NCBI GenBank assembly: GCA_902475615.1
Contig: CABSAD010000002.1
Span: 110,287-174,286, forward strand
DNA from: an uncultured Collinsella sp.
GTDB lineage: Bacteria; Actinomycetota; Coriobacteriia; Coriobacteriales; Coriobacteriaceae
Reading direction: 5' to 3'
DNA length: 64,000 nt
Below the pieces are notes generated by a model, which had not been told where the DNA came from, searched no databases, and was given only the letters and a program-made list of their open reading frames with translations. The position numbers and the translations under genes were made by a program. This document shows, one piece after another, positions 10,499-45,929 of the stretch (position 1 is the first letter of the stretch; each line of letters begins with the position of its first letter).

Positions 10499-10628
10499 TC
10501 GACAGCCAAAGGGCTTGGGCTGCACGCCACCTCATTTACTAGATAAGACGAAGCAGCAACAACGTCGCTACCGCCCTTCACGGCATGCCGTTTAAATCTT
10601 GGCAACCAAAGAGAAGCCGACGGCATAT

Positions 10629-10808
10629 CGAGGGTGAATGTTTTTCCGAGAAGTGAACGAGTAAAATCAGCACCCCGTATCATCGACATTTTTATGGGCT
10701 TAATTCCTGCGGTTTTTGCCTAGGAATCCTGCGGTTTTATTCGAAAAAAGTGTGCATGCTCCAGGGGTCCATATTTACTCGTTCACTTCTCGGAAAAACA
10801 CTCACCTT
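10629..10808. mobile_element. MITE-like repeat, copy 1 (about 180 bp with terminal inverted repeats ggtgaatgtttttccgagaagtgaacgag / ctcgttcacttctcggaaaaacactcacc)
   Basis: Three copies share about 80-90% identity, terminal inverted repeats, and an internal duplicated cctgcggtttt motif. Confidence 0.7.
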
Positions 10809-10949
10809 CAATTCGAGCCTTCACCAAATGGCTCCCCGGAACATAACCCCCGTCTCGCCGCGGCCATATCAAACCTTCATGGTGGGGCGGTATCCTCATG
10901 TCCATAAAACTCGCAGGATAAACCCATTATCCAAGGAGGCACCGCACCC

Positions 10950-11825
10950 GTGTCGTGGGTTGTCGCAGCATTTGCGTCAGCATTCTTTGCCGGCATCACA
11001 TCCATCTTGGCCAAATGCGGCATCAAGCAGACCGACTCCGATGTCGCGACGGCCATTCGCACCTGCGTGGTGCTCGTTTTCGCCTGGGCAATGGCGGGCA
11101 TTTCTGGATCCATTGGAACCATTGGCAGCATCGAACCCAGATCCTGGCTCTTTCTCGTCCTCTCGGGACTCGCTACCGGTGCTTCGTGGATCTGTTACTT
11201 TAAGGCGTTGAGCATCGGAAATGTCAATAAGGTCGTACCGGTCGACAAGATGAGCGCCGTGCTCGCCGCGCTGGTCGCCATCGCGCTTTTTGACGAGACG
11301 AGCAACCTTGCGGTTAAGCTCGTGGGAACCGCTGTCATCACCCTCGGCACGTTTTTAATGATCGAGAAGAAGCAGTCCGCCGAACCCGAGCAGCAGCAAG
11401 ACCGAACCTGGCTCGCTTACGCCCTCGGCGCCGCCGTGTTCGCGGCACTCACCTCCGTCCTCGCCAAGATCGGCATCGAAGGCGTTGAGTCAAACCTGGC
11501 CACGGCAATCCGCACCTGCGTGGTACTGGTTATGGCATGGGCAATCGTGGCAGCCAAGGGAAAACTGGAGCAGGTCGCGCACGTTGACCGGCGCGAACTC
11601 ACATTTCTCGCAACATCGGGCATCGCGACTGGAGCATCGTGGCTGCTCTATTACTATGCCATCGCTGCAGGCCAGGTGAGTGTCGTGGTGCAGATCGACA
11701 AACTATCGATTGTCGTATCGGTGCTATTTGCGCACCTGGCATTCAACGAAAAACTCTCCCGCCGCAGCGCCATCGGTCTCGTCCTCATCGTACTGGGCAC
11801 CGCCGCGCTTGCAATTTGGAAGTAG
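10950..11825 (+). CDS. EamA/DMT family transporter (GTG start)
   Basis: Two internally repeated EamA domains (ATAIRTCVVLV...AWA occurs twice) and 10 TM helices. Confidence 0.8.
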   Translation: MSWVVAAFASAFFAGITSILAKCGIKQTDSDVATAIRTCVVLVFAWAMAGISGSIGTIGSIEPRSWLFLVLSGLATGASWICYFKALSIGNVNKVVPVDKMSAVLAALVAIALFDETSNLAVKLVGTAVITLGTFLMIEKKQSAEPEQQQDRTWLAYALGAAVFAALTSVLAKIGIEGVESNLATAIRTCVVLVMAWAIVAAKGKLEQVAHVDRRELTFLATSGIATGASWLLYYYAIAAGQVSVVVQIDKLSIVVSVLFAHLAFNEKLSRRSAIGLVLIVLGTAALAIWK

Positions 11826-11919
11826 CGCCGATACCGAACGAAATCCAGTCCACCCGCAAATCCGTGACAGAGCGCCCGCACCGGACTTGAGATGTTTGTA
11901 CTGACCGCGCGCTGCCGTG

Positions 11920-13224
11920 CTACTTGCGCAGCGGCTTGGGCAGCGGAATGCCGGCGGCGATGGCTGCGGCAATGATCATGCAGACGATGCCCTTGAGCGG
12001 GAAGCACATGAGCAGCAGGCCCACGACCATGACGGGCTGGCGCATGACGGCGCCCATCGTCGATGCCGTGCAGACGGCGACGCAAAAGACCGGATCTGCG
12101 CCGGTGAGGATGGCAAGGCCATAGCCCAGGCTTACGCCCGAGAAGATAACCGGGAAGAAGTGGCCGCCGCGCCAGCCAAGGCTGATGAGGGCGGGCGTCA
12201 GCATGGCCTTAACAAGACCGGTCGCGATAAGCACGCCGGCAGGAATGGTGAGGTAGGTCTCCATAAGTACATCGGCCTGGGTCTCGCCGGCAAACATGGT
12301 GTAGGGCAAGACCGTGCCGCAGATGGCGAGCGCCAGACCGGCCAGCATGGCCTTGACGACAGGACGCTCCCCTATTGCATGGGACAGCGCCTCGCTCGCG
12401 TGCTCCGAGACAAAGTACAGCCAGCCGCAAACGGTGCCAACCAACGCCAGCGGGATGAGCCAGGCAAGCTCCAGGTTGCCCACCTCGGCGGCCTCGAACC
12501 TGGGCATGCCCATGCCGCCGCCCATAACCTGGCCGAGCAGCAGATAGGTGCCCAGGCCGCCGGCAATCGCAATACCGTAGACCACAGTCTTCTGTGCCTT
12601 GGGCAGTTTGATGGTGATCTCGCCGGACGCGGACCCATCGCCGGCGTCTTCGCCCTGGCCGTCGGCGCTACCGGCGAGCGGCGCCACAAAGCCAAAGACG
12701 GGCGCGGTAAAGAGCGCCGTCAGCGCGGCCTGGGTGCCCAACAGCGTGAGCTCCCTGAACTCGGCGCCAAAGCGGCGCATGCGGTCGCCGACCCAGCTGC
12801 ACAGACCCGCGATAACGCCGGTCAGGCCGGCCTCCGGTCCAATACTTCCGCCAAACAGCAGCGGCAGCAATGCCGCGAGCGAAAGCTTGCCCAGGTTGTC
12901 GTACGGGTAGCGCCCGTCTTGCTTAACCTTAGCCATCACCTGGTTGAGGTCGTCGGTCTTGGTGCCCGTAAGCTTTTCGTACAGGCCGATCAGCAGGCCG
13001 CCCAGCAGGCAGACGAAAAACGGATACGGCAGAAAACCGAACGGGCCGCTGGCGAGTTCGGGCGACGCCGCGCCCAGCATGTGGGGGATCTCGGTCCACA
13101 GATAGTCGATACCGTGCTCCATCGCAAAAAAGAACAGCCAGACCGCGGCACCTGCGAACGCACCGGTCACGGCAACGCTAACTAAAAACAGCACGCGGTT
13201 TGTGGGTTTGGCAAGGTTGTCCAT
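11920..13224 (-). CDS. ClC family voltage-gated chloride channel
   Basis: 434-aa polytopic protein with ClC selectivity-filter-like motifs (GGSIGPEAG, GHFFP). Confidence 0.75.
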   Translation of the reverse strand: MDNLAKPTNRVLFLVSVAVTGAFAGAAVWLFFFAMEHGIDYLWTEIPHMLGAASPELASGPFGFLPYPFFVCLLGGLLIGLYEKLTGTKTDDLNQVMAKVKQDGRYPYDNLGKLSLAALLPLLFGGSIGPEAGLTGVIAGLCSWVGDRMRRFGAEFRELTLLGTQAALTALFTAPVFGFVAPLAGSADGQGEDAGDGSASGEITIKLPKAQKTVVYGIAIAGGLGTYLLLGQVMGGGMGMPRFEAAEVGNLELAWLIPLALVGTVCGWLYFVSEHASEALSHAIGERPVVKAMLAGLALAICGTVLPYTMFAGETQADVLMETYLTIPAGVLIATGLVKAMLTPALISLGWRGGHFFPVIFSGVSLGYGLAILTGADPVFCVAVCTASTMGAVMRQPVMVVGLLLMCFPLKGIVCMIIAAAIAAGIPLPKPLRK

Positions 13225-13349
13225 CGGGTCCTCCCGCGGTCAAAGTCGACATAGTTATGTTTTATTGTAGAGCGAGCGTTGCCCAGACAAGCCAACCATC
13301 TGCGCCACAAACGGCACCATTGGGAGTCATAGTGGGGCAGGCTCAAGAC

Positions 13350-13883
13350 TTATCCGTTGATAATCGAGACAATCTCGCGCAAATCGTCGGCAAAGTAGAT
13401 GCCTTGCTGGCGCCTCGGGCTCGAAAGCCCCTTATCAATCATGTGCCCGAGCAGCGCCTTGAGGTCGTTGTAGTAACCGTCAAGGTTATACAGGATGCAC
13501 GGAGCACTCAGGTGCCCCAACGACACCGCGGACATGACCTCGGCAATCTCCTCGAGCGTGCCCGTCCCACCGGGAAAGGCGATGAACGCATCGCCGAGCT
13601 CAATCATCTTGGCTTTGCGCTCGGCCATATCGCTCGTCACGATGAGGTCATCGATGCCGTCGTGCTGAAACTCGGCCTCTATAAAAAAGCTCGGCTCAAC
13701 GCCCGTCACGTGTCCACCTGCCCCGAGTACGCTATCGGCGAGCGCGCCCATCAGGCCCGATTTGGACCCGCCGTATACCAGCGCGTGCCCGTTGGAGCCA
13801 ATCCAGTTGCCCAGCTCTTGCACCGCAGGCAGAAACGCCGGGTCATTGCCGACGCTGGCGCCCAGGTATACCGTGATATTCAT
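13350..13883 (-). CDS. LOG family protein (cytokinin riboside 5'-monophosphate phosphoribohydrolase-like, TIGR00730)
   Basis: GGSKSGLMG and PGGTGTLEE motifs. Confidence 0.9.
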   Translation of the reverse strand: MNITVYLGASVGNDPAFLPAVQELGNWIGSNGHALVYGGSKSGLMGALADSVLGAGGHVTGVEPSFFIEAEFQHDGIDDLIVTSDMAERKAKMIELGDAFIAFPGGTGTLEEIAEVMSAVSLGHLSAPCILYNLDGYYNDLKALLGHMIDKGLSSPRRQQGIYFADDLREIVSIING

Positions 13884-13919
13884 ATTCAGTCCCCCTCGTC
13901 GTGACGCGCGGCGCCCGTT

Positions 13920-14405
13920 CTAGCGTTGGCGTCGGCGATATTCGCGCACACGGCGCGACAGGTCGGCGAGCTCGTCACGATCGAGCTCTTCCAAATGCTC
14001 CAGATCGTCCATAAAGCGCGCCATGGTGTCCTTTTGGCGCAGCTTGATGAGCATATTGCAGTAGTTCACCGCCACACCCGTGAGCATGGCGATGTAGAAG
14101 ATGCTGATAACGCTCAGGACGACGGTAATAGCGCGAGCGACCGGCGTTTCGGCCGGGATATCGCCAAAGCCGATGGTCGAGACCGTCTCAAAGCTAAACC
14201 AGAGACCATCGCCAAACGTGAGGGTCGTGGGCTCGGACAGCCAGACAGCCGTCGAGCACAGCAGATAGAAGATAAGAAACAGGCCCGTGATGCGCGCAAA
14301 GCCAGCCTGGCGCAACACGTCGGCAAGCGTCCTCAACTTGTTCATCGCGACCCCTTTTCTCAGATGCCCAATCACATTCGCTCGGTATTGTCCCACATCC
14401 GGCAC
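13920..14405 (-). CDS. two-TM potassium channel family protein
   Basis: Selectivity filter TIGFGD between two TM helices. The start may be the internal MNKLRTL. Confidence 0.8.
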   Translation of the reverse strand: MPDVGQYRANVIGHLRKGVAMNKLRTLADVLRQAGFARITGLFLIFYLLCSTAVWLSEPTTLTFGDGLWFSFETVSTIGFGDIPAETPVARAITVVLSVISIFYIAMLTGVAVNYCNMLIKLRQKDTMARFMDDLEHLEELDRDELADLSRRVREYRRRQR

Positions 14406-14537
14406 TTGAGGACGTTCCTTTTGTGCCGGCAGAAAGGGACTGTCCCCAAGTGCTGGGAGGAACCGTTTAGCGGCGCAACTGCCGGCTAGGCAGGCTGAGC
14501 TGGTATCCTTGTGCGGTAATGTCTCGATTCGTTAGGA

Positions 14538-17348
14538 TTGCATGTGAGAGCTTCCGCTGTCCTTCGTTCAGTTATATATCGCACCCTGGCCGTCGCGCTT
14601 GCCGCGCTCGCCGTACTGAGCACCATCATGCCCGCCCCCGCCTTTGCCGCCGGCTCCGATCAACAGGTCAAAACGGTCCGCGTTGGTTGGCTCGTCAGCA
14701 ACGAGGGCTTCCAGGACGGCACCCCCGGCGAGCGCCTCTCGGGATGGGGTTACGAGTACCTCCAGACCCTGTCGTACTATACGCCCGGCTGGCAGTACGA
14801 ATACGTCTCCGGCACCTTCACCGAACTTATGGACATGCTCGAGGCGGGCGAAATCGACCTCATGCCCAACATCTCCTACTCCGAGGAACGCGCCCAAAAG
14901 CTGCTCTTTTCCTCGAACCCCGAGGGCACCGAGCGCTACTACATCTATGCCAGGCCCGATCGCGACGATCTAGCCAAGGGTGACCCCCAAGCGCTCCAAG
15001 GCCTTACCATCGGCTGCAACCCCGGCGTTATGCAAACCTTCGTTGGCCAGCAGTGGCTCGCCAACGAAGGAATCACCTGCACATACAGGGAGTATGACGG
15101 AGGATCCGATCTCTTTGACGCGCTCGCAAACGACGAAGTCGATGCCGTCATCATGAACGACACGACCTCGTCGCCCAGTGCCTCCCCCATGTTCTACATC
15201 GGCTCGAGCGACTACTATTTTGCCGTTCCCAAAAGCCGCCCCGACCTGTTGGACGACATCAATGCCGCCATGACAGCAATCGCCCGCGTCAACCCACGCT
15301 ATATCGACGAAGTCAAATCTAACTACTCGGCCCAAAACAGCGGTTCATCATCGCTCAACGGTCCCGAACGTTCCTGGCTCAAAGCAAATGACAGCACCAT
15401 CACGCTCGGCTACATTACAGGCAAACTCCCCTACTGTAACGAAGACGAAGACGGCGAAATGGAAGGTTCGCTCGCATCGCTTGCGACGACGCTGCACGAT
15501 AAATTTGGCATTACGGTCAAAACCGTCGCCTTTGATAGCTACAAGATGATGTCAAAGGCCCTGTCAAAGGGAAGCATAGACGTTGCGCTGCCGGTATACC
15601 GAGATTACTGGTTTGCCGAGCAAACAGGCGTTGTGCAGTCGGTATCGTTGGGGACCATGTCCCTCACTGCCATCCACACCGGCAGCAACCTGAACAAAGA
15701 CCTCCAGAACATCGCCTGCACCAAATCATCGTTTATCAACAAAAATGCACTTGAAAGTCTGTTCCCCACAGCGGCCGTAACCGAATACCAATCCGGCGAT
15801 GAAGTGTTCGACGCCCTCAGGAAGGGAACGGCGCACTGCATCGTCGCTCCCAGTTCACGCGTAAAAACCATTGGCGACCGTCATGATCTCGAGGGCTACG
15901 AGACGGTCGAGCTCCCTGGCACCTGTGAGCTCTCGTGCTGGATTTCGCGCGGAAAGCCCGAGCTGTTGGGAATCATCAACAAGGGCATCATCAATGCCGG
16001 AGAATCGCTCTCCGCAAGCAATTACTCCTCCACGTCGTACACAGCCCAGGAATCCGACACGCTTCGATTCCTTTATCGCAACCGCGCCGCTATTGCCGCT
16101 GCCCTCATCGGTATGTTGTCGGTCGGCATCGTCCTGCTCATCTGGACGCTCGTGCGCGCTCGAACCGAGCGCGAAAAAGCCGATGCCGCCAACGCCGCTA
16201 AGACGGCATTCCTCACGCGCATGAGCCACGACATCCGTACGCCACTCAACGGCATCCTGGGTCTTATCGAAATTGAGGAATTGAAAGACGGCGACATGCA
16301 GGCCGCCCGCGAAAGCCGCGCCAAGGCGCGTGTTGCCGCCAATCACCTACTCTCGCTGATCAACGACATCCTCGAGATGGGCAAAATCGAAGACCGCAAG
16401 CTAACTCTGGAACATGCGCCTTTTAACCTCAAAGAGCTCTGTGACGATACGCTGGTGCTGTGCAAGCTCCGCGCATCCGATAACGGCATCACAATGCAGG
16501 ACAATAGTCTGCCGTACGCCACGGGGCCATACATGATCGGCAGTCCCACCCATATCCGACAGATCATAATCAACCTGTTAGACAACAGCATTAAGTACAA
16601 CAAGCACGGCGGCTCCGTCACCTTTAGTTCAAAGACCAAGCCACTCGATGATGGGCGCGCGCTCTTTTGCTTTAGTGTTTCGGATACTGGCATTGGCATG
16701 GCTCCCGAGTTTTTAAAGCATATCTATGAACCGTTTGCCCAAGAAGGTGATGATGCGCGCAGCAAGTTCCAAGGAACCGGCATGGGCATGCCAATCGTCA
16801 AGTCGCTTATTGAACTGATGGGCGGTACGATTGAGATTTCGAGTGAGGTTGGCGTGGGGAGTACGTTCAACGTCCAGATTCCGCTCGATATCGACAAGAA
16901 CCCTCAGGCGCGGGCAGATACGGTCGAGAGGGTGCTCGACTGCTCGCTCGCCGACATGAACGTGCTGCTCGCCGAAGACAACGAATTGAATGCCGAGATT
17001 GCCCAGACGCTGCTAGAATCCGAGGGCGTCGTGGTCACCCGCGCCGCCAATGGCAACGAAGTCGTCGATCTGTACCTGTCACATCCCGCCGGCAGCTTCG
17101 ATGCGATTCTGATGGACATCATGATGCCAGGCATGGACGGCTATGAGGCAACCCGCGCGATTCGTCTGAGTGAGAAGGCCGATGCAGCCGATATCCCCAT
17201 CATCGCGCTCACCGCCAACGCCTTTGCCGAGGACGCCAAGGCGGCACACGATGCCGGCATGAACGCCCATCTGTCCAAACCGATCGACTTTAACAAGCTC
17301 AAAAACACACTCGCCCGCATCAAGAAATACGGAGCTGTTTCGCTATAG
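14538..17348 (+). CDS. hybrid sensor histidine kinase/response regulator with two periplasmic solute-binding (SBP_bac_3-like) domains
   Basis: Signal peptide, two substrate-binding-like domains, a TM segment, HisKA (SHDIRTPLNGI), HATPase_c (GTGMGMPIV) and a C-terminal REC domain (LLAEDNELN...DIMMPGMDG). Confidence 0.85.
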   Translation: MHVRASAVLRSVIYRTLAVALAALAVLSTIMPAPAFAAGSDQQVKTVRVGWLVSNEGFQDGTPGERLSGWGYEYLQTLSYYTPGWQYEYVSGTFTELMDMLEAGEIDLMPNISYSEERAQKLLFSSNPEGTERYYIYARPDRDDLAKGDPQALQGLTIGCNPGVMQTFVGQQWLANEGITCTYREYDGGSDLFDALANDEVDAVIMNDTTSSPSASPMFYIGSSDYYFAVPKSRPDLLDDINAAMTAIARVNPRYIDEVKSNYSAQNSGSSSLNGPERSWLKANDSTITLGYITGKLPYCNEDEDGEMEGSLASLATTLHDKFGITVKTVAFDSYKMMSKALSKGSIDVALPVYRDYWFAEQTGVVQSVSLGTMSLTAIHTGSNLNKDLQNIACTKSSFINKNALESLFPTAAVTEYQSGDEVFDALRKGTAHCIVAPSSRVKTIGDRHDLEGYETVELPGTCELSCWISRGKPELLGIINKGIINAGESLSASNYSSTSYTAQESDTLRFLYRNRAAIAAALIGMLSVGIVLLIWTLVRARTEREKADAANAAKTAFLTRMSHDIRTPLNGILGLIEIEELKDGDMQAARESRAKARVAANHLLSLINDILEMGKIEDRKLTLEHAPFNLKELCDDTLVLCKLRASDNGITMQDNSLPYATGPYMIGSPTHIRQIIINLLDNSIKYNKHGGSVTFSSKTKPLDDGRALFCFSVSDTGIGMAPEFLKHIYEPFAQEGDDARSKFQGTGMGMPIVKSLIELMGGTIEISSEVGVGSTFNVQIPLDIDKNPQARADTVERVLDCSLADMNVLLAEDNELNAEIAQTLLESEGVVVTRAANGNEVVDLYLSHPAGSFDAILMDIMMPGMDGYEATRAIRLSEKADAADIPIIALTANAFAEDAKAAHDAGMNAHLSKPIDFNKLKNTLARIKKYGAVSL

Positions 17349-17386
17349 TTTGTGCTCAACCACCATACGCAGCAGAAAGGAAGCCA

Positions 17387-17869
17387 ATGATGTTTAGGCC
17401 CTTACGTCGAAAGAAACGCGCCATCACTGACGAGGAAGCGCGCAAGTTGCTCGCCACCTGCAAGCGCGGCGTCTTTGCCGTCAACGGCGATGATGGCTAC
17501 CCCTATGCCATTCCCGTCAACTACTTCTTTGACGCCGAGCACGACAAGATTTATTTCCATGGCGCCAAAGCCGGCCACAAGGTCGACGCACTCAAACGCG
17601 ATGACAAGATCTGCTTTACCGTTTACGGCAACGAGTGGTACAAGGACGGTGACTGGGCTCCCTACGTTATGAGTACTGTGGTCTTTGGCCGCTGTCGCCT
17701 GGTTGATGAGGCGCCTGCATTCATCGAGGACAAAGTCCGCCAGCTCGCGCTTAAGTACTACCCTTCTGCCGAAGAAGTCGAGGAGGAAATCGCCAAGGAC
17801 ATTAAGGGCGTCCAGCTCTACGAGATTACGATTGAGCATCTCTGCGGTAAGCAGATTCAGGAAAAATAA
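17387..17869 (+). CDS. pyridoxamine 5'-phosphate oxidase family protein (NimA/nitroimidazole-reductase-like FMN-binding split barrel)
   Basis: 160 aa with GVFAVNGDDGYPYAIPVNYF and the conserved KICFTV region. Confidence 0.8.
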   Translation: MMFRPLRRKKRAITDEEARKLLATCKRGVFAVNGDDGYPYAIPVNYFFDAEHDKIYFHGAKAGHKVDALKRDDKICFTVYGNEWYKDGDWAPYVMSTVVFGRCRLVDEAPAFIEDKVRQLALKYYPSAEEVEEEIAKDIKGVQLYEITIEHLCGKQIQEK

Positions 17870-17916
17870 ACCTCCGCAGCAGGTCTGCGCCCAATGGTTA
17901 CAGATGCCTTACCACA

Positions 17917-17949
17917 CGGGGCCTTCCAGCCGACTTGGCAGAAGGCCCC
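17917..17949. terminator. hairpin between convergent PNPOx-like and patB genes
   Basis: Stem ggggccttc / gaaggcccc. Confidence 0.5.
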
Positions 17950-17964
17950 GCATGCAGGGCACAC

Positions 17965-19179
17965 TTACCGTGCATTAAAAACGTAACGGTCTAGGCGGTC
18001 GCACGCTTCCCTTACGCGCGAAAGCGGCAGCGCCAGATTCACGCGAATGTGGCAGGGCCCGTGGAACGGGCGGCCGTCCTGATATCCCACGCCCACGCGC
18101 GCCCCCTCGTCGAGCAGCCACTGAATATCGCGGCCATGCTCGCGACACCACTCCGTGCAGTCCAGAAACACCATGTACGTGCCCTGCGGACGTGAAAACG
18201 CGACGCCCTTCCATTGTTTTTCTGCATACGTGCAGAAGTACTCGATATTGCCGGCAAGCACCTGGTTGAGTTCGTCCACCCACTCGTAGCCTTGCGGCTG
18301 GTAGGCACCGATAAGCGCATGCATGGAGAGGACATTCATTTCATTGTAGTGAGTCTTGTTAGACACAGCGCATATGCGGTCGCGCAGCGTCTCGTTGTAG
18401 ATAATGTGGTAGCTGCCGACCAAGCCCGCCAGGTTGAACGTCTTGCTGGGCGCGTAGAGGGCAACCGTACGCATGCGGGCATCCTCGCTCACCGACTGCG
18501 TCGGGATATGCTTGTGCCCCGGCAGGATGATATCGGACCAAATCTCGTCCGAGATCACCACGCAATCGTGCTGGCGATAGATGTCCATGGCGCGCTCGAT
18601 CTCGTCGCGCTCCCATACGCGGCCGCAGGGATTGTGCGGCGAGCAGAACACCGCGGCATGGATGTGGTTTTGGGCGAGCTTGCGCTCCATGTCCTCAAAG
18701 TCCATACGCCACACGCCCCGGTCGTCGAGCTTAAGCGGGCTGTGGACAATACGATAGCCCGCGGCCTCGATGGACTTGGTAAAGCCGATGTAGGTAGGGC
18801 TGTGGACCAGCACCGCATCGCCTGGCTGGACATACGCGCGTAGCGTCGACACGACACCGCCCAGCACGCCGTTTTCGTAGCCGATATGCTCCGGCGCCAG
18901 GCCTTCGACGCCATTACGGCGGCTCTGCCATTCGATGGTGCGGTCGAAGTACTCGGGACGCGGATTGAAGTAGCCAAACATGGGGTGCTGAGCGCGCTTG
19001 ATGATGTACTCCTGAACCGTGGGCACCGTGGCGAAGTTCATGTCGGCCACCCACATGGGAATGCGGTCGAAGCCCTCGTCGGGTGCGTTCGGAGCCATAC
19101 CGGGGATCTCGCCCCAAGAGTCAACGGCGATGGCATCCATGCCGTGGCGGTCGATAAGCGAGCTAAAGTCGTATTTCAT
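17965..19179 (-). CDS. MalY/PatB family PLP-dependent C-S lyase (aminotransferase class I/II)
   Basis: 404 aa with a PLP-lysine region (SKTFNLAGL) and MalY/PatB-typical termini. Confidence 0.85.
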   Translation of the reverse strand: MKYDFSSLIDRHGMDAIAVDSWGEIPGMAPNAPDEGFDRIPMWVADMNFATVPTVQEYIIKRAQHPMFGYFNPRPEYFDRTIEWQSRRNGVEGLAPEHIGYENGVLGGVVSTLRAYVQPGDAVLVHSPTYIGFTKSIEAAGYRIVHSPLKLDDRGVWRMDFEDMERKLAQNHIHAAVFCSPHNPCGRVWERDEIERAMDIYRQHDCVVISDEIWSDIILPGHKHIPTQSVSEDARMRTVALYAPSKTFNLAGLVGSYHIIYNETLRDRICAVSNKTHYNEMNVLSMHALIGAYQPQGYEWVDELNQVLAGNIEYFCTYAEKQWKGVAFSRPQGTYMVFLDCTEWCREHGRDIQWLLDEGARVGVGYQDGRPFHGPCHIRVNLALPLSRVREACDRLDRYVFNAR

Positions 19180-19291
19180 GCTGAGCTCCCGTGCAAAGTA
19201 GGCTGTTTCGATAGGCGTTATTGTCCACCAGCGTAGGCGATTTTGGCATGGGGTTTGCTGTTGATTTTGACGGATACGGGCGGATGGCAGA

Positions 19292-20038
19292 TTAGTCTTG
19301 AGCGTCGTTGATGGCGGTTACCGTCAACCCGGCTCCGTCGACCGTAAACGATATGTCGAGCCCGGCGTAAGCCAAATGGTAAACGCGGTTTGGCTCGTGC
19401 TTGCTGCCCGCACGGCGCGGATCTTGGCGCAGGACCTCGACCAAGCCAGGGAGCTTTGCGCTTGGAACTTTGTCTTGCAGTGCTTGCGGGAACTCGACGT
19501 CGAGCTCTTGCCACGGCGCGTCTTCAATCCAGCCGCCCGTCGCATCCGGGTGACAGTCGGCAAATGGAATGTAGGGCTTAATGTCGTAGATGGGCGTGCC
19601 GTCGCGCAGATCGGCCCCCAGCACATGGATGATGGGGCCATCGTCGGTGAGCTCGACACGATCGAGCTTGACGCAGGTAAGCCCGATGGGATTAGGGCGA
19701 AACGGACTGCGCGTGGCAAACACGCCCACGCGCTCGGCTCCACCCAGACGCGGCGGGCGCACAGTTTTCGACCACTTGGCATTGGTGCCGGGCCTGTCCT
19801 GCGTCTTGGCATCGGTAGCTATGTCCTTAGCCGTGCCGCCGGGCGTTCCGTTTTCAAAGCGCCACAGCAGCCACAGGTGAGAGAAGGAGTCTAGACCCTC
19901 AACCGCTGCATTGGAGGCAAATTCCGGCTCAAAAACGATGCGTCCCTGCAGATGGGGCGCCAAAAAGCTGTTGCGCGGAATGCCGAACTTCTGCGGCAGG
20001 TCGGTATGTATGTGTGCGATAGGTTCCATGCCGGTCAT
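19292..20038 (-). CDS. tsaA: tRNA (N6-threonylcarbamoyladenosine37-N6)-methyltransferase TsaA (YaeB family)
   Basis: The C-terminal 249 aa of the long ORF (MTGMEPIAHIHTDLPQKFGIPR..., GLTCVKL, KPYIP) match YaeB/TsaA. The N-terminal extension to 20890 is rejected. Confidence 0.75.
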   Translation of the reverse strand: MTGMEPIAHIHTDLPQKFGIPRNSFLAPHLQGRIVFEPEFASNAAVEGLDSFSHLWLLWRFENGTPGGTAKDIATDAKTQDRPGTNAKWSKTVRPPRLGGAERVGVFATRSPFRPNPIGLTCVKLDRVELTDDGPIIHVLGADLRDGTPIYDIKPYIPFADCHPDATGGWIEDAPWQELDVEFPQALQDKVPSAKLPGLVEVLRQDPRRAGSKHEPNRVYHLAYAGLDISFTVDGAGLTVTAINDAQD

Positions 20039-20170
20039 TGTACGGCATGGAGGTGTGGGGCGTTGCGTGCAATTCTTCGCCGCGGTCCCCCGTCGTGCAA
20101 CCAACGGTTGCTTGGAAGGGCGCCTGCTGCCGCGTATGCTTAAGCCATCAACCAGCAGAAAGGAGCCGTT

Positions 20171-20998
20171 ATGGCCTTTGCAGAAAAGCTCATCGCTGTC
20201 CGTCGCGCTCATCACCTCACCCAAGAGCAACTCGCCGCCAAGCTCTTCGTCACACGCCAAGCCGTCAGCCGTTGGGAGCGTGGCGAGGTCACACCGGGCA
20301 TCGACATGATGAAGCTCATCGCCGCCGTGACCGGCGAGCCCCTGTCTCATCTGCTCGAAATGCCCGAGCGCTATTGCCAGAGCTGCGGCATGATACTCAC
20401 GCCCGACGACTGCGGCACCGATGCCACGGGCGCCGCGACCGACCATTACTGCAAGTGGTGCTACGACCACGGCCAGTACACCTACGACACCACGATGGAG
20501 GCAATGATCGAGGACTGTGCCCCGCGCCTGGCACAAAACACCGGCATGTCGCTCGACGAAGCCGTCTCGCTCATGGGCGCCGTCCTGCCGCAACTGGAGC
20601 GCTGGCGCGCCGTGCAAGAAAACGAGGAGCGCTACGGTGCCGAGGCGCGGGCGCGCTATGGCGATGAGGCTATCGATGCGGCAAACGGGACGCTGCTGGA
20701 CATGGATCCTCAGACATGGAACGACATGAAGGAACTTGAACGCGCTATTCTGGGTCAGCTCTCGATTGCCATGGGCGACGGCGATGCGGATGGAAGCGAG
20801 GCTCGCAAGCTCGTCGCGATGCATCGTCGTTGGATTGGTCTCAACTGGGGACGCGAACCCCAGAACGAGGCGTATCTGGGGCTCGCCCACGACTATCTTG
20901 CCGACCAGCGCTTTATTGACTACTACGACAAGCCCTGCGGCGCCGGAGCCACGGCGTTTCTGGTCCAGGCGATCGAGTCGTCGTTGACGCGCGCATAG
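20171..20998 (+). CDS. XRE-family HTH regulator fused to a zinc ribbon and a TipAS-like C-terminal domain
   Basis: N-terminal HTH_3 (LTQEQLAAKLFVTRQAVSRWERGE), a CxxC...CxxC ribbon (CQSCG...CKWCYDHG), and a C-terminus resembling the TipAS antibiotic-recognition domain (YGDEA...MHRRWIGLNWG...YLGLAHDYLADQRFIDYYD). Confidence 0.7.
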   Translation: MAFAEKLIAVRRAHHLTQEQLAAKLFVTRQAVSRWERGEVTPGIDMMKLIAAVTGEPLSHLLEMPERYCQSCGMILTPDDCGTDATGAATDHYCKWCYDHGQYTYDTTMEAMIEDCAPRLAQNTGMSLDEAVSLMGAVLPQLERWRAVQENEERYGAEARARYGDEAIDAANGTLLDMDPQTWNDMKELERAILGQLSIAMGDGDADGSEARKLVAMHRRWIGLNWGREPQNEAYLGLAHDYLADQRFIDYYDKPCGAGATAFLVQAIESSLTRA

Positions 20999-21049
20999 AC
21001 CGCGGCGGCTTTGGGTATTTCAATCAAAACCGCAACCGATTGGAGACCT

Positions 21050-21295
21050 ATGGCTACTAATCATGAGCTCGCGCTGTACGTTATGACCGGCTGCCCGTAT
21101 TGCATAAAGGTCAAGCGTTTCCTTGCCGATAACGGCGTGACCATTCCCGAGCGCAATATCTCGACCGATACCGATGCCGAGCAGACGCTCATCGCCGTCG
21201 GCGGAAAACGCCAGGTTCCCTGCCTGTTCATCGACGGCAAGCCACTCTACGAATCGAGCGACATCATCGCGTGGGCGCAGGAGAACCTGCTCTAG
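21050..21295 (+). CDS. glutaredoxin family protein
   Basis: CPYC active site, GG motif and length of about 80 aa. The ORF opens at 21011, but MATNHE... is the likely start. Confidence 0.8.
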   Translation: MATNHELALYVMTGCPYCIKVKRFLADNGVTIPERNISTDTDAEQTLIAVGGKRQVPCLFIDGKPLYESSDIIAWAQENLL

Positions 21296-21300
21296 AGCAG

Positions 21301-21364
21301 CATAGTCATCGGGGACGTTCTTAAATGACTAGTCGTTAAAGTGCGTCCCCAACGACTAACTAGC
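21301..21364. repeat. 62-bp palindromic element, copy B
   Basis: About 80% identical to 685..746, with a ggggacg...cgtcccc hairpin. It overlaps the stop codon of the dus gene. Confidence 0.7.
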
Positions 21365-22313
21365 CGTGGAAGCGGGCTATGGGCGCAAGTGGCTGTTCGC
21401 GAAAGACGCGATCAACGGCGGCACGGTATTCGTCGACCTTTTTGGTCTTACGTACAAGCTTGTGGACGGTAGCGGGGTCGGCGAAAGCGCACTTGGCATA
21501 GAACCACCACTCCTTCATGCGAAAGACCGCATTGCCACCAATCTCTTCCGCATATGCCGCAAACAGCGTGTCGTGGAAGCGCTGCAGCTCAGCAGTCGTG
21601 GCAGCAGGACCACCGTTGACCATGCGAGCCAGCGCGGGGTTCGCGAGCAGGCCACGCCCCAACATCACATGGCGCGTGCCGGGATAGGCCTCCACCAGCG
21701 CGTCCATATCCTCAAGATCAAAAATGTCGCCGTTGTATGCCACCGGAAACGGCGCGCGTTCCAGCGTCTCGCCGTAAAACTCCTTGCGCGGCGATCCCGT
21801 ATAGCGGTCCTTTTGCACGCGCGGGTGCACGATCAGCTCTGCCAACGGCATGCGGCAATACAGATCGAGCACACGCTCGTATTCGTCGTCGCTCTCAAGC
21901 CCCAGCCTGGTCTTGACCGATACCGGCAACGGTGACCGCTCGCACACATCGCTCAAGAACACCTCGAGTTCATCGAGATTGCGCAAAAAGCCCGATCCTT
22001 TACCCTTGGCAACAACCGTACCCGAGGGGCAGCCAAGGTTGAGATTGACCTCGCGGTAGCCCATGTCGGCGAGCACCTGTGCCGCCCACACAAACTCGTC
22101 CGCGTTCTTGGACATCAACTGAGGCACCACGTTGAGCCCCTGGTTATTGGCAGGATCGATCTCCTTAAACGCCTTGCCGCCAAAGCGGTTTCCCACCCGC
22201 GGCGGCGGCAAAAACGGCGTGTAATAACAATCGAGCGCACCGAAGCACTCCGCATGCACGCGACGGAACACATGCCCGGTAATCCCCTCCATAGGGGCAA
22301 GCGAAAGAATCAT
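21360..22313 (-). CDS. tRNA-dihydrouridine synthase (Dus family)
   Basis: LAPMEGIT N-terminus, NLNLGCP catalytic cysteine region and a TIM-barrel-length body. Confidence 0.85.
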   Translation of the reverse strand: MILSLAPMEGITGHVFRRVHAECFGALDCYYTPFLPPPRVGNRFGGKAFKEIDPANNQGLNVVPQLMSKNADEFVWAAQVLADMGYREVNLNLGCPSGTVVAKGKGSGFLRNLDELEVFLSDVCERSPLPVSVKTRLGLESDDEYERVLDLYCRMPLAELIVHPRVQKDRYTGSPRKEFYGETLERAPFPVAYNGDIFDLEDMDALVEAYPGTRHVMLGRGLLANPALARMVNGGPAATTAELQRFHDTLFAAYAEEIGGNAVFRMKEWWFYAKCAFADPATVHKLVRKTKKVDEYRAAVDRVFREQPLAPIARFHG

Positions 22314-22454
22314 CTACTCTTCTCTCATATCAACGGATGTGACAAAGGAACCGCCCCCCTTGTTACATGCATTATGCCTTGTGCTCCAGATGATTCACAA
22401 GGCAGAGGCAGCAGCTTGACGATAATCACCCTTCCATCCGGCGCCTCATGCAAC

Positions 22455-22634
22455 GAAGGTGAATGGTTTTCCGCGAAGTGAACGAGTGAAATCGGACCCT
22501 CGATGCATCGACACTTTTGGAAGGCCAATTCCTGCGGTTTTATCACTCAAATCCTGCGGTTTTAGCGTCGAAAAACGTGGGTGCTTCAGGGGTCCAAATT
22601 AGGTCGTTCACTTCTCGGGAAACCATTCACCTTC
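22455..22634. mobile_element. MITE-like repeat, copy 2
   Basis: Same orientation as copy 1, with terminal inverted repeats gaaggtgaatggttttccgcgaagtgaacgag / ctcgttcacttctcgggaaaccattcaccttc. Confidence 0.7.
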
Positions 22635-22812
22635 GATTTGCTGTTTGTGGGCATCGGCAGCGGCTTCATGCTCCAAAAGACGACGTTCGCGATCAAACGA
22701 TCACCAACAGCACGCTGTTGACCGCCATGTATGAACAACAGACATCCTCCACTCATCTATACTCAAGAGCGTGTGCGCATCGCCCCCGAAAAACGATGAG
22801 AGTCGAGGCCCC

Positions 22813-23946
22813 ATGCAGCAGCTCACCGAGCAAGAAAAGAAACGCATCCAGCGGTACTGCACATACCCCAAAATCGCAGCGACCGCACTCGTCATGTCGT
22901 TCGTAGCATGCCTATTGATGTTGCCGCTCCAAATGATCAACGATATCGCGTTCCATCAAAAGGAATTCCAACCCGCGGGCATATATACCGCCATCGCACT
23001 CACCGCAATCGAACTCGCCATCTTTTGCTATTGCGCTCTTGCGCCGCGCTTTGGAATGCAGGGCAAACAGTGGAAGGAGCTGCAGGGCAGGCTTGCGGTG
23101 GCCCAGACCAACAAAGACCGCTCCGCGGAGGTCGCCGGTGTGCTCGCCACGCAAGCTGCCGGCCACCTGCTCAAGAACAGCGATAACGATCTCGCGCGCA
23201 ACCTGGGCGGCGCCGCGGAGGTCGCCGGCGCCGTAGGGGCAGTCGCCACGGCGGCAGACGTGCTAGCCGAAACCTCGAGCAATGCCGAGGCCATGGCAAA
23301 CGCATACGACGTGACGATTCCAAGCGTCAAGAAGCAGATCATAGCTCTCGCAGTGGCGCCCGCCATTGTGCTGCTTGGCGTCTACATCCCGCAGTTTGTC
23401 CAGGGGAATAACGAGCTTCAGGTAAGAAAGGCTGCAGCCGCCGAGCAGCTCGCCATAGCGCAAGATGCCTTGGAGCCCGTGTGCGAACGCGTTGCGGCAG
23501 ACGACCCATATGAGTCGTATCACGACTACGGCTATCGCATTATCGGCTATCTGCGCGATAATGACCTCGGCGCTCAAGCAGCCTATGTCTACCTTTCTTT
23601 CGATGCAGACGGCATGCTCACGGACGTCGATTACACCAGCCAGATCGACCCCGAGGCAAGCCTTGCAGACAACCTCGCCCGCGCCGAGCAGGACATCGCG
23701 ACGCTCTGTGCCCCGCTCAACGGGTTGGACATTTCCGTTGCCGCACCGGGCCTCCTCACGCCATGCAGCCTGTCGGATGAATTTAAACAGGCATTTTTAG
23801 CCGGATCCCTATATGAAGAAATCAGCATCAAGACGGAAGACGAATCTATCAGGTCGTACTACACCTTTGACACCGAGCCCAAAGAAGAGTTCGACGAATA
23901 CACCCATCCGGAAATTAGGCTCATGCTCTCTGCAAAGAAGAACTAA
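22813..23946 (+). CDS. hypothetical membrane protein (ORF opens at 22771)
   Basis: About 377 aa with 3 predicted TM helices and no recognisable domain. It is bracketed by MITE copies 2 and 3. Confidence 0.5.
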   Translation: MQQLTEQEKKRIQRYCTYPKIAATALVMSFVACLLMLPLQMINDIAFHQKEFQPAGIYTAIALTAIELAIFCYCALAPRFGMQGKQWKELQGRLAVAQTNKDRSAEVAGVLATQAAGHLLKNSDNDLARNLGGAAEVAGAVGAVATAADVLAETSSNAEAMANAYDVTIPSVKKQIIALAVAPAIVLLGVYIPQFVQGNNELQVRKAAAAEQLAIAQDALEPVCERVAADDPYESYHDYGYRIIGYLRDNDLGAQAAYVYLSFDADGMLTDVDYTSQIDPEASLADNLARAEQDIATLCAPLNGLDISVAAPGLLTPCSLSDEFKQAFLAGSLYEEISIKTEDESIRSYYTFDTEPKEEFDEYTHPEIRLMLSAKKN

Positions 23947-23992
23947 AGGCTTACGCTCTAATTGCCGCTCGCGAACATCGTCTATATCTCGA

Positions 23993-24170
23993 GGTCTAAT
24001 ACTTTTCCAAGAAGTGAACGACCGTTTTTTGACTCCCGAAGCATCGAAATTTTCTGACGCCAAAACCGCAGGATTTAACAATCAAAACCGCAGGAAACCG
24101 CCTTCAATAAGTGTTAGCGCTTCGGGGGTCCATTTTGACTTGCTCACTTCTCGGAAAAGTATTAGACCCC
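23993..24170. mobile_element. MITE-like repeat, copy 3 (inverted relative to copies 1 and 2)
   Basis: Carries the aaaaccgcagg x2 core as a reverse complement. The TIR core ttttccaagaagtgaacga / cacttctcggaaaag is shared. Confidence 0.65.
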
Positions 24171-24218
24171 GATTTCGCAAGGGTCTCAATGTGACAAAGG
24201 AACAACCCTTTTGTCGCA

Positions 24219-27200
24219 TTATTCGGAGCGCAGGGCTTCCACGGGATCCTTTTTGGATGCGCTACGGGCCGGCAGCAGGCCAGCGACAACCGTCAGCAGC
24301 ACCGAAATTGCAATGAGCACCAGCGCATCCTGCACGGGCAGGCTCATCAGATTGGGTACCTGTTTGGCAGTAAGCGCCCAGGCATTAACCGGAAAGCTCA
24401 CGGCCACCACAACGACAACAGCAAAGACGCCGGCGATGAGGCCCTCGATAAAGGTCTCGGCATTGAATACGTTGGCCACGTTACGCTTCGACGCGCCGAT
24501 CGCACGCAGGATGCCAATCTCCTTTTTGCGTTCCAGCACGCTGATGTAGGTGATGATGCCGATCATGATGGAGCTCACCACCAGGCTGATACTCACGAAT
24601 GCGATGAGCACCAAGCTGATGGTGTTCACGATGTCGGTCACCGAGCCCATGATGATGCCCATGTAGTCGGTGTATGAGATTGCCTGTTCATCGTGGCCAG
24701 AGGCTTTGACCTGCTTGTTGTACGCGTCGATGTGATCGAGCACGCGCTCCTTGGCCTCAAAGTCGCGCGGGAAAATCTTGACCGAGATGGGGTCTGCCTC
24801 GTCCGCATAGCCCAACGTGGTCAGATTGTTGTCGTAGGTGAGCTTCGACGCCTTCGCATAGCTCATCATGAGCGAGCTCAGATCCTCGGCGTCCATGTTG
24901 AAGTGAATGGCATTGGCAAAGGCGCTCGCATCCACGCGCATAGCGCTCGCCAGGTTGGCAAAACCCGATGACATCTGCGTCGCCATCTGGCCCATGAGCC
25001 CCGCTGCGCCCGCCTTGAGCTGGGACGATACCGTCGACGCTATCTGCTCGCTAATTGTCTTCATCATCTGATCCATAGCCCGCTGCAGATACGGAGCCAG
25101 CTGCTTTTGCACATAGTCGGTCATCACCTGCTGCAGGCGCTCGGCCAGGGCATCGCCGCCGAGCGCTTTTAGCTGGGCAAGGATTTGCTGGGCCGTGGCA
25201 TCATTCTCAAGATACGTCGAGAATGCGGCAGAGAGCTTTGACGCGTCCTTAAGATCATCGGGCGACAGCGCCTTAAACTGATCAGACTGCAAAAAGCCCT
25301 CAAACAGCTGGTTGGCTAGTGTTCCCACCTGCTGCATTTGCTCGGGCGTGAGTTCCAGACCGTCAAAGATACCCGAGAAATCTGGGGTTGGCGCTTTGGC
25401 CATGATGTCACTGAAGTCAATATCCTTCCCAACGCCCGAAAGGTCAATGTCCAGCCCGGATAAGTCGATACCAGAAAGGTCCATACCGCCGGCAACACCC
25501 GAGAGCGCAGATGCATCGAACGAGAACGCGCTCTTCAGCGCTGCCTCGTCCACACTGAACATGCTGCCTAGATCAACTCCTTGTTTGGCCTCGCCCTGCA
25601 GTTCATCGAAAGACTTGCCCGTAAAGACATCCGTCTCGGGATGGGCAAGCTGTTCTTGCACAATCTGCGAATCGGCGGCGCGCTCCATAAGCTGGCGAGT
25701 CAGCGCATGCGTATAGGCAATGCCCGGGGTCAATGCGCTCGCGTTGGCCGTCTCGTTAGGTCGCACCACGCCCACAATGCGCACGTCAATACCGTCGGCA
25801 ACCTTGGCCGTCATAAAGTCGGCATCGTCAGACATGTCAGTCCACATGCCAGTCTCTTCGTTTTTGCGATACGCATCAGCCGGCGACAGCACCTTAAACG
25901 TGGTAGACAGCGCATCGTCGTAGGTAAAGTCGGTGCCGGTCTCGGGCGTTTCGACCCCACCGTCAGCCGTCATAGCGCTGTTTACCAGATCGTTGAGCTC
26001 ATCGATATCCAGCGCACCGATGCTGTAGAGCGTGTAGTCGCCCACCGTGCCGCGGCTCGAAAGCACCATTACGGCTTCGTCGGCAGACGTAGGCCAATGC
26101 CCCGCCACGACGTCGTATTGGCCGTCGAGCAGGTTCTGGTCGTCAATCATCTCGTTAAAGACCGAGGTTCCCATGGATTCCATGCTCACCGTTGCCGCCG
26201 AGCTCGCGCCTCCGCTCATGGCCTCGGTCATGGCGTTGGGCACCAGCCGGACAGGCTTCTCATCGCCCTTGCCGGCACGATAGACAACCGGCGATACACC
26301 GTAGCCGTACTGAATGGCGTTGACCTCTTTATCGATGCCGTCGCCACCGGCATCGAGCCATGCCTTAAAGCTCGTCATGTCGTTGGACTTAACGCTCGCA
26401 AACATATCCTTTACGGCCGTAACCACGGGAATCTTATCGGTTCCCTTAGCCTTGCCGCCGGCACTGTCGTCGGACGAATCCACGTTTTCAGGCGAGTCAT
26501 CATCCGCAGCCCCATGCCCGCCCATCATGGACGATAGATCGTAATCCTGCTTGGAAATGGTGAGTGGGTAGCTCGAAAGCGTATCCTCCTCGACCTTTTT
26601 GATGTAGCCGTTTACGCCGTTGGACAGCGCCAGAATCGCCGCGATACCGATAATGCCAATCGAGCCCGCAAAGGCCGTCATGGCCGTGCGGCCCTTCTTG
26701 GTCATGAGGTTTCGGGCAGAAAGCCCCAGCGCCGTCACAAAGCTCATCGAGGTTTTGCGCGTAGGCTTGGCCTCGCGGCGCGTGGCGTCAGCGACATCGA
26801 AAGGATCGGAATCGTCGGTGATCTTGCCGTCCGCCAGGTTGACGATGCGCGTGGCGTATTGGTATGCCAGGTCGGGATTGTGCGTGACCATGATGACCAG
26901 ACGGTCGCGCGCAACTTCTTTGAGCAAATCCATAACCTGCACGGATGTCGTTGAATCCAAAGCGCCAGTCGGCTCGTCGGCAAGGACGATCTCAGGGTCA
27001 TTGATCAGGGCGCGGGCAATGGCCACACGCTGCATCTGCCCACCCGAAAGCTGGCTCGGACGCTTGTTAACGTGCTCGCCCAGGCCGACTTTCTCCAACG
27101 CCTCGCGCGCACGCTGGCGGCGCTCGGCATGCCCCACGCCCGTGAGCGTGAGCGCCAGCTCCACGTTTTCCAAAATAGTCTGATGCGGAATGAGGTTATA

Positions 27201-31689: not shown

Positions 31690-32168
31690 CACTCGGCATT
31701 GCGAAACGCGTCCCAAAACTTGGACATGAGAAATGGGAGGCAGTTCGCATCTGTGCCGAGGACGAAGTCCTGGCGGGAATTCAGGATGCGCAGAGGAAGC
31801 TTACGGCAGAAAACCCCGACAGAGTCGTGACCGTCGGCGGCAACTGTATGGCGTCGCTTGCCCTCTTCGATTACCTGCACGGGAAATACGAGAACGTTGG
31901 AATCGTCTGGATCTATGCGCATCCGGATGTATCCACGCTGAATGATGGCTACCCCAACGCTCACGCCATGGTACTTGGCAACCTTTTGGAACAGGGTGCA
32001 CCGCAACTCGTTTCGCGGATGCGGCATCCGGTGTTTAAGCCGAGCGATGTCCTGCATGTCGGGCTACAGCAGCTCCACGACTATCAGGAAGTTTGCTTAA
32101 ACAAGCATAGGTGTTGCGGTTTTAGCCGATGTCCTCATGGAGGAAAACGACATGCTGGGTCTGTCTGA
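31690..32168 (+). pseudogene. arginase/ureohydrolase-family fragment (N- and C-terminally truncated, metal motifs degenerate)
   Basis: The frame reads ...DRVVTVGGNCMAS...GIVWIYAHPDVST..., which parallels the arginase GGDHS and DAHxD motifs with substitutions. It has no start codon and begins right after the kinase stop. Confidence 0.45.
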
Positions 32169-32214
32169 TTAAAGTCCAACAGTTTCCATGAGGCATCTAG
32201 CACGGTAAAAGCTA

Positions 32215-45884: not shown

Positions 45885-45929
45885 CAGCAAATCGATAACG
45901 ACGGCCCATAAGAAGTTCAAGAGGAAATC

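Follow-up and report, generated by a model that had tools for sequence, protein, structure and literature searches.

The window analysed here, a 64-kb stretch of DNA from an uncultured Collinsella sp. (contig CABSAD010000002.1), contains three copies of an intergenic palindromic repeat of about 185 bp. The repeat defines a previously undescribed family and is a genus-specific addition to the bacterial interspersed palindromic repeats. By its features, it resembles an ancient miniature mobile element that no longer moves, and not a composite transposon around the gene that two of the copies bracket. With moderate confidence, we regard the family as Collinsella-specific, non-coding repeats of the foldback type that spread once at an early time, were inherited vertically afterwards, and at present serve as a passive substrate for rearrangement.

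Distribution and Age of the Repeat Family

Two scans with different patterns were used to retrieve copies of the element, and the counts below refer to the matches listed by them. In a genome collection, the pattern consisted of the central repeat pair of the element and matched at least 118 loci; the element is present in 114 of those listed, nearly all of which are labelled Collinsella or unclassified Coriobacteriaceae, and the four element-free loci are chance matches to the pattern. In metagenomes, mostly human-gut assemblies, the pattern consisted of two arm cores 104-133 nt apart and matched at least 120 loci, 116 of which contain the element. Over both scans, at least 244 copies were found, all of them in Collinsella DNA among the matches listed. 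One contig labelled ‘Acutalibacteraceae’ (L020, CAVCBD010000141.1) is 93% identical to Collinsella loci over 2.1 kb and is therefore probably a mis-binned Collinsella contig that contaminates this metagenome-assembled genome. Searches with blastn place no copy on plasmids or phages, and nhmmer detects no element in 1.06 Mb of viral contigs, where the centre pattern gives four unrelated matches and a 15-base arm pattern single chance matches.

When copies are clustered on 500-600 nt of flank at each side, the at least 244 copies resolve into about 12-14 real intergenic sites, and no large new site was contributed by the second scan. A single-locus origin of the similarity, which would have spoken against a repeat family, is thereby dismissed. 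The length of the element is nearly constant across copies (191 ± 2 nt including small margins). Among the matches listed, the site of copy 1 is filled in 16 other loci and the flank context of copy 2 is found in 15 loci. Neighbours elsewhere include the genes for aspartate-semialdehyde dehydrogenase (asd), a histidine kinase, a SIS-domain protein, a lactate/malate dehydrogenase and GatB; the genes beside the sites have no common function and none of them is a mobility gene. As ABC-2/EamA, Dus, ABC-FtsX, asd and the other neighbours are unrelated, the similarity between copies does not stem from a promoter or terminator common to paralogous genes.

Copies from the same site are 87-99% identical, whereas those from different sites are mostly 65-88% identical. 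Copies thus group by site and not by genome, which indicates old, vertically inherited insertions; by these identities, the insertions are older than the diversification sampled. No description of this repeat was found in the literature. Rfam gave no match at the gathering score and nothing meaningful at E up to 10 on the element regions. A catalogue of structured RNAs from the human microbiome lists palindromic candidates, and the motifs described here do not occur in those of its supplements that were examined (PMC8040213).

Structure of the Element

The sequence-only reading of the window had described three copies with terminal inverted repeats and an internal duplicated motif, and all three are present within about 5 nt of the coordinates it gave. 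In the numbering of the window, the copies and their conserved parts are as follows.

10629-10813, + strand: copy 1, subfamily B, tips GGTGAATG / CACTCACC (nhmmer E 1.4e-57)
10644-10660, + strand: arm core TTCC-NN-GAAGTGAACGA of the left arm of copy 1, with its mirror at 10779-10795 on the - strand
10705-10738, + strand: central direct-repeat pair TCCTGCGGTTTT of copy 1
22454-22638, + strand: copy 2, subfamily B, tips GGTGAATGG / CCATTCACC (nhmmer E 1.4e-61)
22469-22485 and 22604-22620: arm cores of copy 2
22530-22563, + strand: central direct-repeat pair of copy 2
23989-24173, - strand (orientation from the centre): copy 3, subfamily A, tips GGTCTAATAC / GTATTAGACC (nhmmer E 3.7e-57)
24005-24021 and 24140-24156: arm cores of copy 3
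24062-24095, - strand: central direct-repeat pair of copy 3

Copy 1 is located between the stop of an ABC-2 permease gene (10498) and the start of an EamA transporter gene (10950), copy 2 in the divergent spacer between a Dus gene (start 22313, - strand) and a gene for a 377-aa protein (start 22813), and copy 3 between the convergent 3' ends of the 377-aa gene (23946) and an ABC-FtsX gene (24219). By codon-position guanine-plus-cytosine (GC) content, the only large intergenic gaps of the window are the sites of the three copies (10498-10950, 22313-22771, and 23946-24219). Mechanically called open reading frames (ORFs) that overlap the copies fail the codon-position GC test, and a candidate small peptide was rejected, as its ORF of 9 codons is unconserved and confined to the centre of copy 1. 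With no conserved ORF inside them and genes with codon-position GC signal around them, the copies are non-coding and intergenic, as had been proposed.

Copies 1 and 2 are 76% identical over 185 nt, and copies 2 and 3 are 74% complementary over 175 nt, which bears out their inverted arrangement; in a three-way alignment, mean identity per column is 80%. Each copy is nearly palindromic, with arms of 67-68 nt that are 78% complementary and with 46-52 nt between the arms. The internal duplication is equally clear, for the centre motif TCCTGCGGTTTT occurs exactly six times in the window, twice per copy and 22 nt apart from start to start. With at most one mismatch allowed, this motif has seven matches in the window vs. 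0.25 expected, and the arm core TTCCGAGAAGTGAACGA has six vs. 0.12 expected.

The description of the ends as terminal inverted repeats holds in that they are matched and inverted, but not in the sense of short terminal repeats, since complementarity spans nearly the whole element. Nor does the core that had been proposed for them form the terminus: GAAGTGAACGA, which is invariant, has a subterminal position, whereas the tips proper are variable. Element ends read AAATCGAGG...CCTCGATTT. The exact termini are fuzzy, with conservation reaching to AAATCGAGG and, in a minority of ends, further to CCCTTGCG. Within an arm, inspection of the consensus reveals a weak TTC-N3-GAA dyad only.

Pairing between the arms was analysed on 13 site consensus sequences, one per site, with 56 pairs. 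Standard pairs make up 96.7% of the cells, and changes on both sides are seen in 10 pairs, each of them part of the outer helix. Covariation scores 0.148 vs. 0.076 in shuffles, the observed score being reached by 0 of 500 shuffles, and the signal is lost when the pairing partners are slid. On the basis of these double changes, the ends fall into two subfamilies, A (GGTCTAATAC / GTATTAGACC) and B (GGTGAATGG / CCATTCACC), plus intermediates, copies 1 and 2 belonging to B and copy 3 to A. Two co-varying end subfamilies are expected where the ends of an element must match each other.

Genomic Position and an Adjacent Hairpin Repeat

Many copies are found either 13-47 nt downstream of a stop codon or in a gap where two genes converge. 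A second repeat, distinct from the element, is the perfect hairpin GTGACAAAGGGAC..GTCCCTTTGTCAC, which has 106 occurrences in 1.73 Mb of element-holding loci. In 51 of the 106 cases it is situated 13-18 nt from the left end of an element (orientation from the centre), in one case within 30 nt of a right end, and in 40 cases far from any element. The hairpin repeat is present twice in the window.

24188-24220: hairpin repeat (aatgtgacaaaggaac..cccttttgtcgcatt) that overlaps the ABC-FtsX stop codon and is separated by 14 nt from the left end of copy 3
22338-22368: the other hairpin repeat of the window, upstream of Dus and at a distance of about 85 nt from the left end of copy 2

In 12 loci with the context of copy 2, the hairpin is found 30-150 nt to the left. 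It has no U-tract, and at other sites ordinary terminator-like hairpins are found at similar distances. Because empty copy-3 sites already carry the hairpin, it pre-exists and the element has come to stand beside it in a set orientation; the constant spacing may reflect a target preference.

The Dus-ABC Spacer

The gene bracketed by copies 2 and 3 is a resident of a variable spacer.

22813-23946, + strand: 377-aa membrane-protein gene, a resident of the variable Dus-ABC spacer and not part of the element

Its product has three predicted membrane helices and no Pfam domain. It has 312 unnamed homologues of 88-97% identity across very many gut samples, and many of their contigs are only 1.4-3 kb long, as would be expected if assemblies break at the flanking repeats. 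A 30-nt internal repeat of the gene (23109-23138 and 23199-23228, 90 nt apart) encodes a repeated ..AEVAG.. peptide motif.

Among the loci examined, the 377-aa gene and its relatives always reside in the Dus-ABC spacer, and the unit occurs at no other locus. The gene is accompanied by two elements in the window, in L045, L050, L258 and L340, and also in L102, L040 and L079; a homologue of about 69% nucleotide identity is present without an ABC-side element in L061, L055 and L081; and in L010, L312 and L083, Dus is followed by one element and ABC, with no gene. Cassettes of this spacer comprise the 377-aa gene, a DUF3592 gene with its paralogue, a 3-kb CMD/cupin cassette and a 6.1-kb agmatine-deiminase cassette. 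The CMD/cupin cassette of about 3 kb is inserted between the Dus-side hairpin and copy 2 in L340 and L036 (exactly so in L340). The 6.1-kb cassette (L035, 892-7033) adjoins the ABC-FtsX gene and encodes an MFS transporter, a TetR regulator, an agmatine deiminase (PAD_porph), an OTCase carbamoyltransferase and another MFS transporter; hairpin and element together form direct repeats of 232 bp on either side of this cassette, and no recombinase gene is among its genes. The Dus-ABC spacer is therefore a hypervariable cassette hotspot bounded by elements.

A palindromic element has an arm reading in each direction, so that two copies in any relative orientation offer direct as well as inverted homology. 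Deletions, solo states and duplications can therefore be accounted for by ordinary recombination. An element occupies the copy-3 site in the window and in L048, and the site is cleanly empty in 12 loci (L061 and 11 others) with homologous flanking genes. Together with the solo and paired states of the Dus-ABC spacer, this establishes the presence/absence polymorphism that the sequence-only reading had suggested looking for. In L003 and L078, a deletion remnant retains the last 22 nt of the right arm at a junction with GG/AA microhomology. At the solo Dus-ABC site, the element of L083 (3016-3207) and those of L010 (5763-5953) and L312 (2259-2450) share flanks, boundary nucleotides and A-type tips, and the inner arms and centre are inverted between L083 and the other two. 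The simplest reading of this core inversion is a flip by recombination or template switching between the element’s own outer arms. Rearrangements bounded by elements thus include gain and loss of cassettes, solo vs. paired states, adjacent deletions and inversion of the core. The copies of today are passive but structurally consequential DNA, whose arms and multiple copies provide homology for rearrangements.

Mobility and Origin

With its 185 nt, its lack of coding capacity, its inverted repeats (with arms far longer than typical), its dispersed copies and its filled and empty sites, the element resembles a miniature inverted-repeat transposable element (MITE). An all-against-all search of the loci for internal mobile segments returned only conserved genes between variable spots and no insertion sequence (IS). 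Comparison of the ends with the terminal repeats of IS5 and Tn3 gave 7-nt resemblances only and no matching 4- or 5-bp duplication, and was abandoned. Readings as a retron, an sso origin, parS or CRISPR were dropped as well, as the adjacent genes or motifs that they require are missing.

In the account that we favour, an element of about 185 bp, with inverted arms of about 67 nt around a 50-nt centre with two direct repeats, would have spread a single time early in the genus through a trans-acting enzyme that has since been lost or is yet to be found. This enzyme would have left no target duplication and would have preferred intergenic DNA just past hairpins at the 3' ends of genes, and inheritance since then would have been vertical at about a dozen sites.

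Several observations weigh against this account. Target-site duplications, which the sequence-only reading had proposed to define, were sought at 17 independent sites for lengths of 2-10 bp, with every symmetric placement of the boundaries between 18 and 44 nt off the arm core, and none was detected; the best result, 3 of 17 matches (k=2), is no better than in shuffled pairings. Comparison of filled and empty states of the copy-3 site does not reveal a target duplication either. That no transposase is encoded in the window had been noted before and is confirmed by scanning its about 48 genes against Pfam, which uncovers neither a transposase nor an integrase; none is encoded beside any site, so the search for a cognate transposase in these places was negative. 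In 1.7 Mb of Collinsella loci, there is no full-length parent element and no solo arm. The term MITE-like is thus justified by dispersal, non-coding nature, matched ends and a filled/empty site, but not by a target-site duplication or a transposase; with the duplication tested and absent and no parent known, the element cannot be filed as a classical MITE. Copy number is low, at about a dozen sites, and among the copies examined there is no sign of recent movement.

Sequence conservation points in the same direction. Across the site consensus sequences, little or no variation is seen in TTTTCC, GAAGTGAACGA, GGACCCCCGAAGCATCGACAC and the two central repeats, GAAGTGAACGA being invariant in all 13; variable parts are the tips, a stretch of the inner arm, the apex and the sequence that separates the central repeats. 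Conservation is thus block-wise, with invariant arm cores, central repeats and GGACCCCCGAAGCATCGACAC beside stretches below 60%. Each scan selected for one block only and the other block is conserved in each set; in the 121 copies retrieved by the arm pattern, which lacks the central repeats, columns of these repeats are at least 90% conserved. At seven of nine sites, neither adjacent 50-nt flank is more conserved than the element, a contrast that comes in part from insertions and deletions at the borders. For such block-wise conservation, a decaying relic is a poorer explanation than selection for a host function. Also, the Dus-ABC junction that carries A-type tips in the solo loci carries a B-type element in the window, and at another site an A-type element is found in one orientation in 17 loci and a B-type element in the opposite orientation in 11. 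Different subfamilies at an orthologous, fixed boundary are not explained by simple vertical descent; re-insertion at a preferred target or replacement from another copy may have caused the change of tips.

On balance, the present role of the element is most likely that of a rearrangement substrate in the main, after an ancient burst and fixation beside gene ends, and protein binding as well as effects of an RNA hairpin are possible. The invariant GAAGTGAACGA and TTCCTGCGGTTTT blocks are probably bound by a protein, be it the mobilising enzyme or a host factor, and an element transcribed within an untranslated region (UTR) would, according to the folding model, form an RNA hairpin of about 65 bp that could end or destabilise transcripts.

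Alternative Readings

An unlikely but credible alternative is that the element constitutes a host-maintained protein-binding or architectural DNA module under purifying selection, the origin of which may still be mobile (exaptation). A Collinsella protein would then bind to the GAAGTGAACGA half-sites, an inverted pair spaced by 118 nt, and to the two phased TTCCTGCGGTTTT repeats. Such a module would account for block-wise conservation at independent sites, cross-checked as it is by scans that select different blocks, for a repeat spacing of 22 nt that equals two helical turns, for conservation at least as high as in adjacent intergenic DNA at most sites, and for the maintenance of about a dozen sites genus-wide. 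However, no candidate protein is known, neighbouring genes are without common function, and the element can be absent, partly deleted or flipped without visible compensation; moreover, both scan patterns needed a conserved block, so that any copies lacking the two blocks would have escaped them.

Quite unlikely is an active structural module in which the arms enable the core to invert in place and the copies are portable recombination anchors. Collinsella would then exchange accessory cassettes beside units of hairpin plus element with no dedicated recombinase gene close by, and a host protein would recognise the invariant motifs of arms and centre.

Selection of the element as a structured RNA, either a small RNA gene or an element that acts in cis within UTRs, such as a terminator, insulator or RNase III processing site, appears improbable. 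As RNA, copy 1 is predicted to form one long and very stable hairpin of -85.8 kcal/mol (z -10.8), compensatory changes are seen, many copies follow directly after stop codons or lie between convergent genes, and in the gap 10498-10950 no other terminator is predicted on the + strand. Against this, the other strand folds equally well (-85.5 kcal/mol, z about -10.7), no promoter or U-tract terminator was found inside the copies by promoter and terminator scans, and Rfam yields no match even at the relaxed threshold given above. The position relative to genes is also inconsistent (5' spacers, 3' ends, tandem and convergent arrangements), and orientation flips at a single site. In the 13 site consensus sequences, single changes of the G-U type are as frequent as those of the A-C type (9 vs. 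10), which points to symmetry at the level of DNA or equally on both strands and not to one RNA strand. An apparent G-T excess over all copies (1022 vs. 564 in 104 distinct copies) was discarded as a sign of strand asymmetry, since it disappears in this per-site count and is due to shared ancestry and the invariant central repeats. As single-stranded DNA, copy 2 folds with -49.4 kcal/mol (z -7.2).

There is likewise only a small chance that the element is an att-like or attC-like site at which cassettes are exchanged by site-specific recombination. Elements do delimit the interchangeable Dus-ABC cassettes, and solo-element states exist as well, but homologous recombination between repeats gives the same patterns. 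No integrase or recombinase is encoded in the window, in the cassettes or beside any site, about 10 other sites are single stable copies without a cassette, copies 2 and 3 are inverted and of different subfamilies, and a core motif of the R'/R'' type is missing.

Finally, the sequence-only reading had described copies 2 and 3 as a composite-transposon-like arrangement, suggesting that the gene between them was mobilised or is being regulated. Mobilisation of the 377-aa gene by a composite transposon made up of these two copies is, in our view, highly improbable: although two inverted elements bracket one gene and this pairing recurs in the other two-element loci named above (L045, L050, L102, L040, L079, L258, and L340), all occurrences are at the same chromosomal locus, from Dus to ABC-FtsX, with zero to two elements, including gene homologues with one element or with none on the ABC side, the flanking elements are non-coding, 185 nt long and of two different subfamilies, there is neither a transposase nor a duplication flanking the unit, and the gene, 88-97% identical across very many gut samples, behaves like a core gene.

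Other Features of the Window and Significance

A third palindromic repeat (GCCTAGTCATTGGGGACGTTC...GAACGTCCCCAATGACTA) is present at 683-741 and 21300-21358, in copies that are 83% identical, the latter copy lying between convergent glutaredoxin and Dus genes. At the equivalent of window positions 21295-21301, a low-GC insertion of 1.2 kb (L045, 183-1375; also in L050 and L340) encodes a 113-aa protein and is flanked by direct repeats of another hairpin (GTACACCAGCATCCAAAG..CTTTGGATGCTGGCGTAC); here again, a cassette lies between duplicated hairpins, the second such case. At 54465-54567 and 62909-63008, about 8.4 kb apart, the window has two azaaromatic (yjdF) riboswitch aptamers (56.9 and 48.4 bits). 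Between them, the block 56000-61000, with 70-74% GC vs. 55-60% elsewhere, encodes an ABC ATPase and a histidine kinase and may be a compositionally foreign island. Four collinear repeat segments of 78-93% identity (32125-32439 vs. 48123-48748) link a region of short ORFs at 32.1-32.6 kb to the start of a 338-aa ORF without Pfam hit (48498-49514), and the former region looks like a gene fragment duplicated from a paralogue. The 64-kb window with its three elements also contains a pair of GyrB/ParE-like and GyrA/ParC-like genes at 43887-48170.

Collinsella is common and very diverse in the human gut, and a repeat that occurs throughout the genus at fixed positions can conveniently be used to type strains. 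It also accounts for assembly breaks around certain genes and marks the Dus-ABC spot of accessory gene turnover, which includes a pathway from agmatine to putrescine. Such elements are poorly catalogued in Actinomycetota, and should the conserved blocks turn out to be bound by a protein, or the core to flip within populations, the family would provide a small new example of repeat-driven genome plasticity in this phylum.

Comparison with Known Systems

Like attC sites of integrons, the Collinsella elements are imperfect palindromes beside exchangeable cassettes, with single and multiple states at one locus. Unlike attC, their ends (AAATCGAGG...CCTCGATTT) do not include an R''/R' core (RYYYAAC / GTTRRRY), no integrase is encoded in the window or the cassettes, elements that flank a cassette can be inverted, and most copies are not beside cassettes.

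Classical bacterial MITEs derive from IS elements, e.g., RUP from IS630-Spn1, and a target-site duplication is one of their defining characters. The Collinsella element is similarly small, has no ORF, has matched inverted ends that fall into subfamilies, and is dispersed in copies with filled and empty sites; it differs in that it has no target-site duplication, that no IS with matching ends was found, and that its best-conserved arm sequence is subterminal and not at the tip.

Correia elements (CREE/NEMIS) of Neisseria have terminal repeats of 26 bp, a TA target duplication and hundreds of copies; they possess a central protein-binding site (IHF), affect neighbouring genes and mark sites of rearrangement. 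The Collinsella element shares with them its small size, its non-coding nature, inverted ends in subtypes and the marking of rearrangement sites. In contrast, its arms are about 67 nt long, no duplication was found, and it occupies about 12 sites.

REPINs are doublets of REP sequences mobilised by RAYT transposases, the REP unit being a short palindrome with a GTAG-like tetranucleotide at its 5' side. The two inverted arms in one long hairpin, the absence of a target duplication, intergenic location, vertical persistence and ties to a lineage are common to REPINs and the Collinsella element, whereas the arms of the latter are without a recognisable REP unit on inspection of the consensus and its copy number is low. 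No RAYT gene is among the about 48 genes of the window scanned against Pfam.

ERIC/IRU of enterobacteria, YPAL of Yersinia and EFAR of Enterococcus are imperfect intergenic palindromes of about 130-190 bp, often near the 3' ends of genes. They occur in either orientation and in tens to hundreds of copies, and long RNA hairpins are predicted for them when they are co-transcribed. To our knowledge, they have no coding capacity, no obvious target duplication and no known parent transposase. The Collinsella element is equally intergenic, palindromic and non-coding, with no target duplication and no parent transposase known; it, too, is found in both orientations, in many cases close to 3' ends of genes, and has a long predicted RNA hairpin. 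It differs from these repeats in lacking sequence similarity to them, in belonging to a different phylum (Actinomycetota), in being restricted to about a dozen sites, in its conserved central pair of direct repeats and in its fixed distance to a second hairpin repeat. By analogy, the behaviour of the Collinsella element seems most like that of hairpin repeats of the ERIC, YPAL or REPIN type.

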